This document shows positions 43,186 through 46,187 of a stretch of DNA of 64,000 nt, in pieces (the stretch's first letter is position 1; each line of letters opens with the position of its first letter). The position numbers and the translations under genes were made by a program. The stretch is from IMG/VR virus record IMGVR_UViG_3300020166_000747, one strand, 5' to 3'. The notes beneath the pieces were generated by a model. That model was not told the origin of the DNA. It saw only the letters and a program-made list of their open reading frames with translations, and ran no database searches. The stretch is from a virus.

Positions 43186-43297
43186 AATAAAGAAGTGAAG
43201 TGTCTCCTCTCAACCTCTCTCAACTATCGGATCTTCTTTATTGTTTCAACACAGAGCATGAAACAACCCGGTGCATCTCTGATGCATCGGGTTTTTT
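43186..43297 (+). ncRNA. Candidate small RNA, three hairpins, CU-rich anti-SD-like loop
   Basis: Starts at the expected TSS; stems AATAAAGAAG/CTTCTTTATT and TGTTTCA/TGAAACA; ends in a terminator. Confidence 0.6.
43265..43297 (+). terminator. Rho-independent terminator
   Basis: AACCCGGTGCATC-TCT-GATGCATCGGGTT running into a T6 tract. Confidence 0.85.
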
Positions 43298-43316
43298 AAT
43301 AGAAGGGATAAAGATT

Positions 43317-43505
43317 ATGAGTGTAACTGGAAATCTACCAAGAAAGACCGACGAAGAAACTGATGAAATGAAAAAAGAAATTGAAAAGTTTCTTAAAAAA
43401 GGCGGCAAGATTAAAAAGATCGAAGAAGGTGAATTCACCGAAGCAAAGGATATGAAATACAAATTTCGTAAGCCAGCTTTTCCGAAAAAGAAAAAAGAAG
43501 ACTAG
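43317..43505 (+). CDS. Small protein resembling the SutA RNAP-binding motif
   Basis: MSVTGNLPRK...EMKKEIEKFLKKGGKIKKIEEG; AAGGGA RBS; start placed after the terminator. Confidence 0.55.
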   Translation: MSVTGNLPRKTDEETDEMKKEIEKFLKKGGKIKKIEEGEFTEAKDMKYKFRKPAFPKKKKED

Positions 43506-43517
43506 CTAAATACTCGT

Positions 43518-43757
43518 ATGGTAAGTACGAGTAAATTTCTAGAATGGGCACAAATGGTTACCGGTTGTACGGCGGCTTTGATAGTGTCATTAAACATTGG
43601 GGACACATGGGTCTTTTGGGCTATGTGTCTTTTTTTCGTTAAAGATAGTATGATGGGGATGTTTGCGTATATAAACAAATACCCAGGTATTATTATGAGT
43701 AGCGTAATATACGTACCGATTGATGTTATTGGTATTTACAGATGGTGGTTATTTTGA
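43518..43757 (+). CDS. Small membrane protein (about 3 TM helices)
   Basis: Hydrophobic 79 aa ending GIYRWW; preceded by GCTAAATA-N5-ATG. Confidence 0.65.
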   Translation: MVSTSKFLEWAQMVTGCTAALIVSLNIGDTWVFWAMCLFFVKDSMMGMFAYINKYPGIIMSSVIYVPIDVIGIYRWWLF

Positions 43758-44017
43758 ACTGGATTCAAATAGATAAGCAGATTATAAGCATGATGCGTGT
43801 AATCGATGACAAAGATAAACTTTATGAAGACGTAAAGCAAGTATTCAAGTGGAATGAATCACAAGTTGAAGCCGCTGTAGGTCCATTAATCAAACGATGG
43901 AACTGGTATGATATGCACACAGATCAAAAGCCAGCGAAAAAGAAACGTGTTACCAAAGCTAAAACCACAAAAAAAGCCCCTGCTAAAAAAGCAAGAGCCA
44001 CTAAGAAGAAATCATAA
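43742..44017 (+). CDS. Hypothetical protein with Lys/Ala-rich H1-like tail
   Basis: C-terminus KPAKKKRVTKAKTTKKAPAKKARATKKKS. Confidence 0.65.
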   Translation: MVVILNWIQIDKQIISMMRVIDDKDKLYEDVKQVFKWNESQVEAAVGPLIKRWNWYDMHTDQKPAKKKRVTKAKTTKKAPAKKARATKKKS

Positions 44018-44449
44018 CTTCTTTCTATAATTTTCCAAATATTCAGTAAGAACTTTCGAACTGCCTATTCGAACATTGATGATACCGTTATAGTATTCAT
44101 CAGTTTCTAATACACGGCGTTCAAATTGTTCCCGTGCCTCCATATAACTTAAAGCACCACGACTCGGACAATAGTGAAGTATCTCTCTGGAAAACTTGTC
44201 TTCTCCTAGTTCTGCTACATCTGCATTAAGATGGTCAGAAGAACCCCAATATGTACGCCAATCGCTTTCTTTAAATCCACGCCGTTTGTTCTTACGCCCC
44301 TTTAGAGGTGGCTTTGTGGTTTTAAACTTCGCTAATTTCTTACCTACATATTTCCTGTTATTTGTAAGATTTGTAATCAGATACACAAATCCCTCAACAT
44401 CATCCGGTAATTCATTAACTATTTCGTTATTATATGTCCATTCACTCAT
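44012..44449 (-). CDS. GIY-YIG family nuclease (145 aa)
   Basis: GFVYLITNLTNNRKYVGKK, YWGSS, F.REIL, E, YYN; likely start MSEWTY at 44449. Confidence 0.85.
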   Translation of the reverse strand: MSEWTYNNEIVNELPDDVEGFVYLITNLTNNRKYVGKKLAKFKTTKPPLKGRKNKRRGFKESDWRTYWGSSDHLNADVAELGEDKFSREILHYCPSRGALSYMEAREQFERRVLETDEYYNGIINVRIGSSKVLTEYLENYRKKL

Positions 44450-44586
44450 TATGTATTGTTTGTATCCTTTAAGGTCTAAAGACCTAATACTTTCATAAAT
44501 CTCATTTCGCTTTCGCTCAACCGATTTAATCAGTATTTCTATTAATAGATTATAATATAATATCATTATGGTTATATTATTAATCT

Positions 44587-44594
44587 TATTTATA
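44587..44594 (-). promoter_or_regulatory. Late promoter TATAAATA upstream of the GIY-YIG gene
   Basis: Exact T4 late consensus, but in an AT-rich stretch. Confidence 0.5.
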
Positions 44595-44596
44595 TA

Positions 44597-45012
44597 TGCC
44601 TGCGGCTGAGCCACAATTGCCCTGTTGCCAGGACAATTGCAAAAAATTATGGATACATGCCATAGCTTCATCGCCTCTGTTTATGAGCTAGTAGCCAGAA
44701 ACTACGGGGTCGGTTGGCGATTCCCCCTTCACTCAGTACTGCGTCTTTCGACCCAACGGCACCTCACAATGTCTAAACAGACAGAACATTATGTAAGTCG
44801 ATAGTGCTATAGTAGCCTATCATCGGTTATATTATTAAACTGGTCAACCACGCACCTTTAGAGCCGTGGCTGTTGTAATTAGAATACTTGTATGTGTGGT
44901 TAACGAGAAGATTGCAGGAATTCATCCCTACTAGTCCAACGGCAACAGTATCTTTAAATACTGGCAGATTCAATCCCGAGTTGGCAACCCAACTAACAGT
45001 TCCACTATGTCT
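44597..45012 (-). ncRNA. Candidate large structured non-coding RNA, family not recognised
   Basis: No credible ORF; more GC-rich than its flanks; many adjacent stems, with GNRA loops on the minus strand; downstream of a TATAAATA promoter. Confidence 0.6.
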
Positions 45013-45016
45013 GATA

Positions 45017-45116
45017 TATTAGCATTTGTCATTGTGTATTAGCCTTGTGTGCTATGTGTTAGTTTTATATTAGCTTTGTAATAGTTTTCAATAGAGCCTG
45101 AGTTATTTATATTAGC
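45017..45116 (-). repeat. Four GCTAATA direct repeats
   Basis: TATTAGC on the + strand at 45017, 45037, 45068 and 45110. Confidence 0.7.
45104..45111 (-). promoter_or_regulatory. Late promoter TATAAATA facing the structured non-coding region
   Basis: Exact consensus just after the stop of the upstream ORF. Confidence 0.65.
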
Positions 45117-45117
45117 A

Positions 45118-45354
45118 TTAGAGTATTGGCACACCGGCCTGTTTACTCATTTCATAGTTGTCTTTTATAATATCATTAATGTGAGCAATGTGCCCAACTG
45201 GCATATCATGGAGTTCAGAAATACTTACCCCACCTCTCATATACCAAGTTAACTTTAACATATTTTTGTGTATGCTGTCAAGCTCTTTTTTGTATTTTTC
45301 TGTTTTTTCTTGGATCTGCGCTGGCGTTGCTGTAATTAACCAGCTGTGAAAAAA
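45118..45354 (-). CDS. -1-frame extension of the gp26-like chaperone (lambda gpGT-like); absent from the ORF track
   Basis: Open frame FFHSWLITATPAQIQEKTEKYKKELDSIHKNMLKLTWYMRGGVSISELHDMPVGHIAHINDIIKDNYEMSKQAGVPIL*, beginning at slippery T-TTT-TTC (45354-45348). Confidence 0.7.
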   Translation of the reverse strand, partial: FFHSWLITATPAQIQEKTEKYKKELDSIHKNMLKLTWYMRGGVSISELHDMPVGHIAHINDIIKDNYEMSKQAGVPIL

Positions 45355-46187
45355 TTTACAGGGTTGACCTCCAGAGCAACCTCGCCTTTATGTTCACATT
45401 CTGGACAAACAAACTCAAATGTTGTTGCATCCTTGGGCTTTTTAGATAGTTCCTTGACTTTAGTATCAATTTCGTCTACAACCGTTGTTGGAATGTTACT
45501 GAGGAACTCCATAATCGAATCATAATCGTTTACATTTCCTTCTGGAGTTTCAATGTAACTTATTGTATTTGCTAACAAATCTACATTATGTTCAGCGATC
45601 TTCCTAAAACTGCCATAGAATCGTCTTGCTAGTTCTGCCTCATCAGTTTCCTCATCGTCTTCATTCGCTACGCTATTCTGAATGTGTTGAACGATTCGTT
45701 TTTGTTCAACATCAATTAGTGCTAGGCGCGTAATCGCTTCTACGCTTGGTGGACGAATATGAATTTTAACTTCATCAAATTCAACTGGCGTAACATGTTC
45801 AATATCTGGGAACTTGTTCAAGATATAATTTATATCAATATTGAAGTCACTAACTTCTTCACAATTTGTACATTTGTGTGCATGTGTTAGTTCACGTCCA
45901 TACGTTGCATATTGAATAGCAAGATACAATGCTTCCATATCAATATTGCACATTGTTCTGGGATTTGGAATATCCGGACAACAACTTTTTGCTATATTGA
46001 TTAGTGCTTCACCATTAAGAAGCTCATCTGGGTTTTTCATAGTAATTTCATCTACTGCGGTCATTGGCAATACACCAACTTCTTCTAATAGTGTGGTGCC
46101 CCATTCTGGATTAAATTTGCCACCTGTCGGCAGTTTTATATAAATCCCTGGTTTTCTGAAATACTTTGCTAGTGGGTTTGTGTTCAT
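45336..46187 (-). CDS. gp26: Baseplate hub/tail assembly chaperone, gp26-like
   Basis: NPLAKYFRKP.IYIKLPT.G, MTAVDEI, D...L.LAI..ATYG, two CxxC pairs, ends NPVNFF; AGAGG RBS. Confidence 0.75.
   Translation of the reverse strand: MNTNPLAKYFRKPGIYIKLPTGGKFNPEWGTTLLEEVGVLPMTAVDEITMKNPDELLNGEALINIAKSCCPDIPNPRTMCNIDMEALYLAIQYATYGRELTHAHKCTNCEEVSDFNIDINYILNKFPDIEHVTPVEFDEVKIHIRPPSVEAITRLALIDVEQKRIVQHIQNSVANEDDEETDEAELARRFYGSFRKIAEHNVDLLANTISYIETPEGNVNDYDSIMEFLSNIPTTVVDEIDTKVKELSKKPKDATTFEFVCPECEHKGEVALEVNPVNFFTAG

Follow-up and report, generated by a model that had tools for sequence, protein, structure and literature searches.

The 64-kb window analysed here, that is, the whole stretch of 64,000 nucleotides from the 72.9-kb IMG/VR virus record IMGVR_UViG_3300020166_000747, contains a gap of 668 nt without a credible gene on its minus strand, between positions 45118 and 44449. 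Upstream of the gap lie a gp26-like baseplate hub gene (46211-45336, minus strand; Pfam PF12322) and a conserved open reading frame (ORF) of 73 codons (45339-45118, minus strand), recognized by synteny, the stop codon of which is at 45118. Downstream follows a gene for a SegE-like GIY-YIG endonuclease of 145 amino acids (44449-44012, minus strand; Pfam PF19835, E 2.5e-36) that consists of the catalytic domain only, starts at the ATG at 44449 and not at 44452, and faces converging plus-strand genes, gp47 and gp46 among them. The minus strand of the gap encodes a large, strongly conserved structured non-coding RNA (ncRNA) of about 400 to 550 nt. A first-pass annotation of the window had reported that no credible gene lies at 44450-45117 and had proposed a large, highly structured minus-strand ncRNA there; both claims were borne out, the former by frames that are inconsistent among relatives and the latter by covariation over 58 sequences.

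Relatives of the locus were fetched through gp26 and then by three independent exact patterns directed at the 3' hairpin, the 3' domain and the 5' domain. The gap was found to be conserved at 66-89% identity in the loci fetched via gp26, and the three patterns recovered the same set of about 105 IMG/VR contigs. With a family profile, the RNA was identified in 112 IMG/VR loci that correspond to 58 distinct full-length sequences (alignment A3); a smaller alignment of 27 sequences (A2) was folded with RNAalifold. The curated fold comprises 90 pairs in 16 helices, with 95.7% of the cells paired over the 58 sequences and changes on both sides in 41 of the 90 pairs (577 cells). Controls in which the fold was slid by 1-3 columns were 34-45% paired, with at most 14 double-change pairs. 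None of 500 shuffles reached the observed percentage paired, the number of double changes or the covariation score; the count of further pair types was reached by all 500. RNAalifold predicted 76 pairs for the 27 sequences, of which 28 showed compensatory double changes, and two pseudoknots were added by a helix-level covariation scan. The relatives' alignment, which had been recommended as a check of the RNA, has thus revealed a conserved and covarying fold.

Folding of the single RNA sequence by itself was only marginal, since 5 of 100 shuffles were equally stable; the case for a fold beyond chance is therefore a comparative one. The minimum free energy (MFE) z-score was -1.84 for the minus and 0.0 for the plus strand. 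These values and the presence of invariant G-U pairs establish the minus strand as that of the RNA, as had been suspected. The RNA core is GC-richer than its flanks (40-51% versus 22-33%), also in agreement with the initial description. No reading frame is conserved across the RNA region in relatives, in which open stretches have no common frame or start. The same nucleotides are spanned by such stretches in each of three frames, and all three also run through the conserved 3' hairpin; furthermore, 748 of the 929 gap runs in the relatives' alignment are not a multiple of 3. A coding reading of the gap was rejected because frames are inconsistent among relatives and gap runs are mostly non-triplet. 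The locus thus combines the features of a structured ncRNA, namely compensatory changes, a single strand and the lack of a conserved frame. The fold is conserved and autonomous, with an information content typical of ribozymes or ribonucleoprotein (RNP) cores.

The RNA core, P1-P15, spans 45009-44612 (minus strand, as for all RNA positions below) and was defined from alignment A3, pair counts and RNAalifold. P1 (45009-45008/44613-44612) joins both ends of the core. The 5' domain (P2-P5) is a four-way junction that is closed by P2 (45005-45002/44899-44896), carries the hairpins P3 (44999-44976), P4 (44965-44942) and P5 (44931-44914), and has the invariant junction strands GGGAUUG and CUUCUCG. 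The first pseudoknot, PK1, forms between the P5 loop GAAU (44923-44920) and AUUC beyond the P2 closing helix (44885-44882); it is 98.3% paired and covaries as GAAU:AUUC, GAAC:GUUC/GUUU and GAAAU:AUUUC. The 5' domain is followed by the hairpins P6 (44872-44845), in which GUGGUUG closes a local hairpin with CAGCCAC through five covarying pairs, and P7 (44821-44800), then by a doubly knotted 3' domain (P8-P13), the variable hairpin P14 (44664-44648), a U-run and the 11-bp GCAA hairpin P15 (44639-44614). The 3' domain is closed by P8 (44780-44775/44682-44677). Its P9 pseudoknot, GUUGG/CCAAC (44757-44753/44717-44713), is 100% paired, crosses P11 (44735-44731/44688-44684) and P12 (44727-44724/44709-44706), and is flanked by the GAAA hairpin P10 (44752-44743) and the P13 hairpin (44705-44691). 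The last pair of P9 is G-C in 36 sequences and A-U in 22, and U-A in the distant loci L203 and L207. A GUUG/CARU helix and a GGCGAU/AUCGCC pairing proposed by RNAalifold were dropped for P9, which covaries perfectly. The run of 6-8 U directly before P15 is present in all clades (44640-44645 in the window, and also in L217, L203 and L207); it is on the wrong side for a terminator.

Most of the stems listed in the first-pass annotation reappear in this fold with compensatory changes or as invariant pairs in the 58 relatives: AGTTGG/CCAACT, CAGTAT/ATACTG, GATAG/CTATC with its nested hairpin, GTC-GAAA-GAC, GGGG/CCCC, GTAG/CTAC and the 11-bp GCAA hairpin. The TATGG/CCATA stem falls in the variable hairpin region, and the long-range AACCAC/GTGGTT pairing is unsupported, as CCAC pairs with GUGG at 45005-45002 (P2) and GUGGUUG with CAGCCAC (P6). 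That annotation contained neither the two pseudoknots nor the assignment of a 3' module to the RNA, nor the two unrelated folds in the nuclease slot and the position of the RNA 3' of the nuclease in other clades that are described below.

Directly behind the core, composition and the comparison with relatives delimit a poorly conserved 3' tail and very AT-rich spacer (44611-44529), with a GC content of about 22% over an 80-nt stretch. The subsequent 3' module (44528-44472) consists of P16 and P17 and shows complementary arm changes. P16 (44528-44523/44501-44496), for which seven different complementary arm pairs were observed, encloses the almost invariant GAGCGAAAGCGA and has a GC-GAAA-GC tip; P17 (AGGUC-UUUA-GACCU, 44485-44472) shows one double change (GGGUC/GACCC). 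The small hairpins noted previously at 44460-44520 are accordingly real and conserved. The 3' module is kept whichever nuclease gene follows; in L217 and L203, where no gene follows, it forms the end of the RNA. Since in distant clades the RNA lies 3' of the nuclease and retains the 3' module, the latter belongs to the RNA. In most loci of the main family P17 ends 15-45 nt before the start codon, and no intrinsic terminator was found between the core and the nuclease ORF. A short upstream ORF in the 3' module was considered as coding and rejected, as it is not conserved in relatives.

Upstream of the RNA (45117-45017, minus strand) a conserved array of four CTAATA repeats is found (45115-45110, 45073-45068, 45042-45037 and 45022-45017), the last of which lies 13 nt ahead of the first structured base. 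The count over 50 distinct upstream regions was 208 copies, compared with about 7 expected, with 1-6 repeats (median 4) per array. Their spacings are close to multiples of 10.7 nt in 103 of 158 cases versus 47 expected, with clusters at 11, 21, 32 and 45 nt. The last copy is invariant and precedes CATAGTGG, or the first paired base, by 13-16 nt, and the array is absent where the RNA directly follows the nuclease gene. It is read as the putative promoter or activator region of the RNA in the window's clade. The related CTAATAT is enriched in the window as a whole (29 copies versus 15.2 expected; none of 100 shuffles reached 29), and its copies outside the array are mostly inside genes.

The RNA had initially been placed under a late promoter, represented by an exact TATAAATA at 45111-45104, a proposal that is supported in part only. 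This motif is present as stated, 90 nt upstream of the RNA, where it overlaps the first CTAATA repeat. It is specific to the clade, being conserved in the closest relatives only, and a second exact copy lies in the spacer (44594-44587, minus strand). Over the 64-kb window the motif is not enriched (6 copies versus 6.4 expected), and the conserved upstream element is the phased CTAATA array. The shorter TAAATA is upstream of same-strand genes in 11 of its 48 occurrences; in the spacer between core and gene it is found in most GIY-YIG loci and rarely in loci with the second type of nuclease, PDDEXK_15 (PF24608).

The RNA evolves at a pace similar to that of gp26, with nucleotide identities of 60-82% versus 66-69% for the gp26 gene, and it is single-copy in complete genomes. 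Complete relatives measure 342-364 kb, and their portal and gp26 proteins are nearest (26-57% identity) to those of giant myoviruses, namely Sinorhizobium phage Phosso, and Pseudomonas phage PA5oct and its relatives. The carriers are a lineage of uncultured marine jumbo myoviruses with T4-like late genes. More than 7,900 relatives of the GIY-YIG protein were identified, many of them from Tara Oceans; an exact look-up showed that its own sequence is not on record. A blastn search in distant mode of 50,697 phage records gave no match to the RNA. Neither was it detected by an exact-pattern scan and the family profile in prokaryotes, represented by one genome for each of 185,579 species: the scan returned 54 stretches, about the number estimated for chance, none of which was confirmed by the profile, with one weak 70-nt match (E 0.0016).

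Searches of known RNA families were equally negative. Rfam 15 had no match in the whole window at the gathering score, and a cmscan of 43500-45500 at E<=10 retrieved a chance snoRNA only. Six relatives had no Rfam match at the RNA, and nine related or cultured-phage loci nothing relevant at E<=1. ARAGORN identified neither a tRNA nor a tmRNA in the 64-kb window, and with the Rfam models this speaks against a tRNA, tmRNA or RNase P RNA. The absence of RNase P, tmRNA, tRNA and group I hallmarks noted in the initial description is consistent with these results, and the novelty that was to be checked by cmscan stands. No paper describing the RNA was found; fragments of it might sit among the short candidate RNAs (29-151 nt; 8,495 novel ones) that PMC10690425 reports from IMG/VR. 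The RNA-seq study of PA5oct reported four ncRNAs, none of them at the syntenic locus (PMC7318152). The RNA thus represents a new family of large structured RNA.

The RNA is genetically tied to the adjacent nuclease gene. Synteny with gp26 and the 73-codon ORF upstream is kept in all loci with room. In 102 of the 104 main-family loci with room downstream, a nuclease gene is located 87-201 nt downstream of the RNA on the same strand: 67 encode a GIY-YIG protein and 35 a PDDEXK_15 protein. In the remaining 2 the RNA and GIY-YIG are separated by a radical-SAM gene; this inserted gene (L081:5209-6417, minus strand; also in L107) encodes a radical-SAM-like protein of 402 amino acids with a CxxxCxxC motif and overlaps the GIY-YIG start. 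All nuclease neighbours are single-domain proteins of 145-181 amino acids (PF19835 or PF24608). RNA and nuclease gene are adjacent and co-oriented in every locus examined, in either gene order, which makes the previously suggested link with the GIY-YIG nuclease plausible; the role in morphogenesis that had been suggested as well is not supported. Near-identical RNAs carry different nucleases (GIY-YIG in L006, PDDEXK_15 in L026), and the swap is precise to the ORF. The two nucleases are mutually exclusive in complete or near-complete genomes (G006/L203, G005/L026 and G011/L043) and single-copy where searched, GIY-YIG in G006 and PDDEXK_15 in G005. The complete 364-kb genome has one GIY-YIG and no PDDEXK_15 gene; the 342-kb genomes have no GIY-YIG, and one PDDEXK_15 was confirmed in the single genome searched for it. 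Given this mutual exclusivity and single copy number, the two nucleases seem to be alternatives for a single functional slot. PDDEXK_15 shares 37-50% identity with the genes at the syntenic place in Phosso, PA5oct and L011, of which the first two are annotated as Holliday junction resolvase; it is the orthologue of these two annotated genes.

In more distant phages, the RNA is found on the other side of the nuclease. Most relatives with gp26 proteins of about 30-35% identity have, close to gp26, gaps of 650-1330 nt that are free of ORFs. When a covariance model of the 3' domain was applied, L217 scored 36.5 bits (E ~1e-6), and L211, L207 and L213 matched weakly. The model match and a reading by eye identify L217 as homologous over its full length: present are the CAUAGU start, a P3-like hairpin, UGCCAG...CUGUUGCC, the GUUGA/UCAAC knot and GGGGG/CCUCC, followed in its 3' part by the U-run with the GCAA hairpin, GAGCGUUAGCGAAG and the terminal hairpin. 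In this locus the RNA is co-oriented with a PDDEXK_15 gene, starts about 10 nt behind its stop codon and faces the gp26 unit. In L207 a GIY-YIG gene takes the place of PDDEXK_15 in an otherwise equal layout, and P9 and P12 read GUUGU/ACAAC and GUAGG/CCUAC, respectively. L203 resembles both in layout, at the level of motif similarity only and without a covariance-model score; in L217 and L203 the RNA starts about 10-20 nt from the nuclease stop codon. Twenty-one distant-clade loci carry the 3' module on the nuclease strand, 375-713 nt past the stop of that gene, and 7 of the 21 also have a CCGUUG...CAACCG core in the right order, for which the chance estimate is about 2e-5 per locus. The RNA is therefore not a 5' leader or riboswitch: in L217, L207 and some 20 further loci, it or its 3' module is found on the 3' side of the nuclease gene.

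Profile and covariance-model searches of Phosso, PA5oct, L011 and L184-L186 gave no match. In Phosso, an unannotated gap of 1 kb separates the genes for RNase HI and the PDDEXK_15 'Holliday junction resolvase' (L182:5748-6761; PV764938.1, ~229759-230772). Both strands of the gap fold more stably than shuffles do (z -2.7 and -3.9), and the gap carries GAGCGAAUAGCGAAG...AACGCAGAC as does the 3' module of L207, without a profile or model match; it may be a distant counterpart of the RNA in a cultured phage. The clade of L186, in which gp26 is 33% and GIY-YIG 80% identical, has an ORF-free stretch of 678 nt after GIY-YIG (L186:3445-4122, plus strand) with a z-score of -5.2 on the gene's strand. 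This stretch contains a U-run, a long hairpin and TATAAATA and is about 80% conserved in L187 and L189; no similarity to the window's RNA family was detectable in it.

We tentatively favour, with something short of even confidence, the reading that this undescribed RNA is made together with the neighbouring nuclease and may be its trans-acting partner, regulating the nuclease or directing it on DNA in late infection. RNA and nuclease would be part of the same transcription unit. In the window's clade, the CTAATA array would set the start of transcription, some 7 nt past its last copy, whereas elsewhere the RNA would be reached by read-through of the nuclease gene. The RNA would end at or near P17 and could act in trans as a compact folded particle, with the minimal nuclease next door as its binding partner; the latter is the phages' resolvase-like enzyme. 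The partnership of RNA and nuclease is offered as a lead and not as a finding, and several observations weigh against it. The same RNA is located beside two unrelated nuclease folds, so that a specific RNA-protein interface would need to arise twice, or the link would be merely transcriptional. Co-orientation rests on about four independent gene arrangements, which makes for weak statistics, and the TAAATA late-promoter-like motif before GIY-YIG suggests that the nuclease may be transcribable on its own. The RNA region has no match of at least 14 nt below E=2 to the rest of the 64-kb window, a single genome piece, and the single-sequence MFE z-score amounts to only -1.84. A more specific version, to which we assign a slim chance, is that the RNA forms the recognition or scaffold subunit of an RNP DNA endonuclease, in which GIY-YIG and PD-(D/E)XK bare catalytic domains (145-181 amino acids) are interchangeable. 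If true, this would be a new kind of RNA-dependent nuclease, with a role in jumbo-phage branch resolution, homing, or attack on host or competitor DNA.

Another explanation, unlikely though it deserves serious weight, is that the RNA is autonomous with a function unrelated to the nuclease, and that the nucleases are free-standing homing endonucleases targeting the invariant RNA gene. Conserved genes have such neighbours in T-even phages, namely seg and mob, and both the GIY-YIG and PD-(D/E)XK folds are known in homing endonucleases. Pfam assigns the protein of the window to the SegE GIY-YIG family, and near-identical RNAs are combined with different nucleases through an exchange that is precise to the ORF and spares the 3' module. 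Furthermore, GIY-YIG is 80-83% identical across clades with gp26 at 31-33% (L184-L189), which fits horizontal spread. However, no empty site was found among about 125 loci, each complete genome has just one nuclease, of the one kind or the other, and PDDEXK_15 is a syntenic resident gene as far as PA5oct and Phosso. Among deeper clades the divergence of GIY-YIG follows that of the phage, with identities as low as 42-66%, and the protein has no DNA-binding domain beyond its catalytic core.

The close spacing on the same strand in all loci would also be expected of a cis-acting untranslated region (UTR) of the nuclease transcript, a leader here and a trailer elsewhere, that sets mRNA stability, processing or translation. 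The lack of an intrinsic terminator between core and ORF, the short distance from P17 to the start codon in most main-family loci and the start of the RNA shortly behind the nuclease stop codon in L217 and L203 are in line with this idea, and mRNA structure regulates T4 gene 49. We nevertheless consider it rather improbable. The position flips from 5' to 3' of the gene with the fold and the 3' module kept, and the size, invariant junctions and two pseudoknots are far beyond known leaders. P1 pairs the core ends as in a discrete stable RNA, most GIY-YIG loci have TAAATA between core and gene, and RNA and nuclease can be separated by an inserted radical-SAM gene.

It is highly improbable that the locus is a DNA-level element, namely a replication origin in the manner of ColE1 RNA II or the T4 origin R-loops, where a long structured transcript primes DNA synthesis; the phased CTAATA repeats would then be protein-binding sites and the AT-rich spacer an unwinding element. 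The array is indeed phased with the DNA helix, the 80 nt of about 22% GC directly follow the core, the locus is among the recombination genes gp46 and gp47 and a resolvase-like nuclease, and an RNase HI gene borders the corresponding 1-kb gap in Phosso. On the other hand, the compensatory changes, G-U pairs included, that run through 16 helices and 2 pseudoknots show that the folded RNA itself is under selection, and the array is missing where the RNA directly follows the nuclease gene. Barely credible is a descent of the RNA from a group I intron, or from a ribozyme of another known class, in which the endonuclease gene was once housed: a structured RNA beside a GIY-YIG or PD-(D/E)XK gene is the classic picture of a phage intron with its homing endonuclease, and the 3' domain is a nested double pseudoknot, but the Rfam group I, group II, HDV-like, twister, glmS and RNase P models gave no match even at E<=10, the upstream ORF ends 108 nt before the fold and convergent genes follow the nuclease, there are no 5' and 3' exons that would join in frame and the spacer has stops in all frames, and the helix order of the curated fold seems unlike P3-P4-P6-P7-P3'-P8-P7'.

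Among known systems, GOLLD and ROOL are large ornate RNAs that are often phage-borne (PMC12286853). The RNA described here shares with them a length of several hundred nucleotides, many helices and pseudoknots, invariant junctions, carriage by phages and discovery by comparative genomics; it differs in having no Rfam sequence or structure match, a smaller size, a fixed partnership with a nuclease gene and no tRNA-gene neighbourhood in the 64-kb window. The HEARO/OMEGA RNAs of IsrB, IscB and TnpB are likewise large structured RNAs directly 5' or 3' of a co-oriented nuclease gene. In contrast to these, the present RNA has no Rfam match, its nucleases are GIY-YIG or PD-(D/E)XK proteins of 145-181 amino acids and not RuvC proteins of at least 350 amino acids, there are no transposon ends, and no guide-like complementarity was found within the 64-kb window. 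Phage group I introns with homing genes (T4 td, nrdB, nrdD) also combine a structured RNA of a few hundred nucleotides with a GIY-YIG gene in T4-like phages, whereas here there are no exons and no Rfam match, the helix topology is another one, and the nuclease gene lies outside the fold on either side. As in the mRNA of T4 gene 49 (endonuclease VII), an RNA structure adjoins the gene of a late-acting branch-resolving nuclease; in gene 49 this is a single hairpin that hides the ribosome-binding site, as opposed to at least 16 helices here, which also occur 3' of the gene.

RNAs with so much conserved tertiary-looking structure are rare, and those known are ribozymes, RNP cores or RNA-only assemblies (GOLLD, ROOL, OLE). 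More than 100 representatives, two covarying pseudoknots and a fixed nuclease partner in two folds provide a testable handle that most orphan RNAs lack, and the RNA marks a conserved locus without a protein-coding gene in marine jumbo phages that are abundant but uncultured.

Two further observations concern the flanking genes. In the window, the 73-codon ORF has no ATG for about 27 codons (45118-45364). In L005, L207 and L217 it stands as an ORF by itself that begins with ATG or TTG, and its counterpart in Phosso is a separately annotated coding sequence. Translational coupling therefore seems as likely as a -1 frameshift at this site, because relatives have a separate ORF with its own start. 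On the other side of the locus, an ORF of 101 amino acids (43200-43505, plus strand) gave a sub-threshold match to the SutA RNA-polymerase-binding domain, with 27.7 bits versus a cut-off of 29.3.
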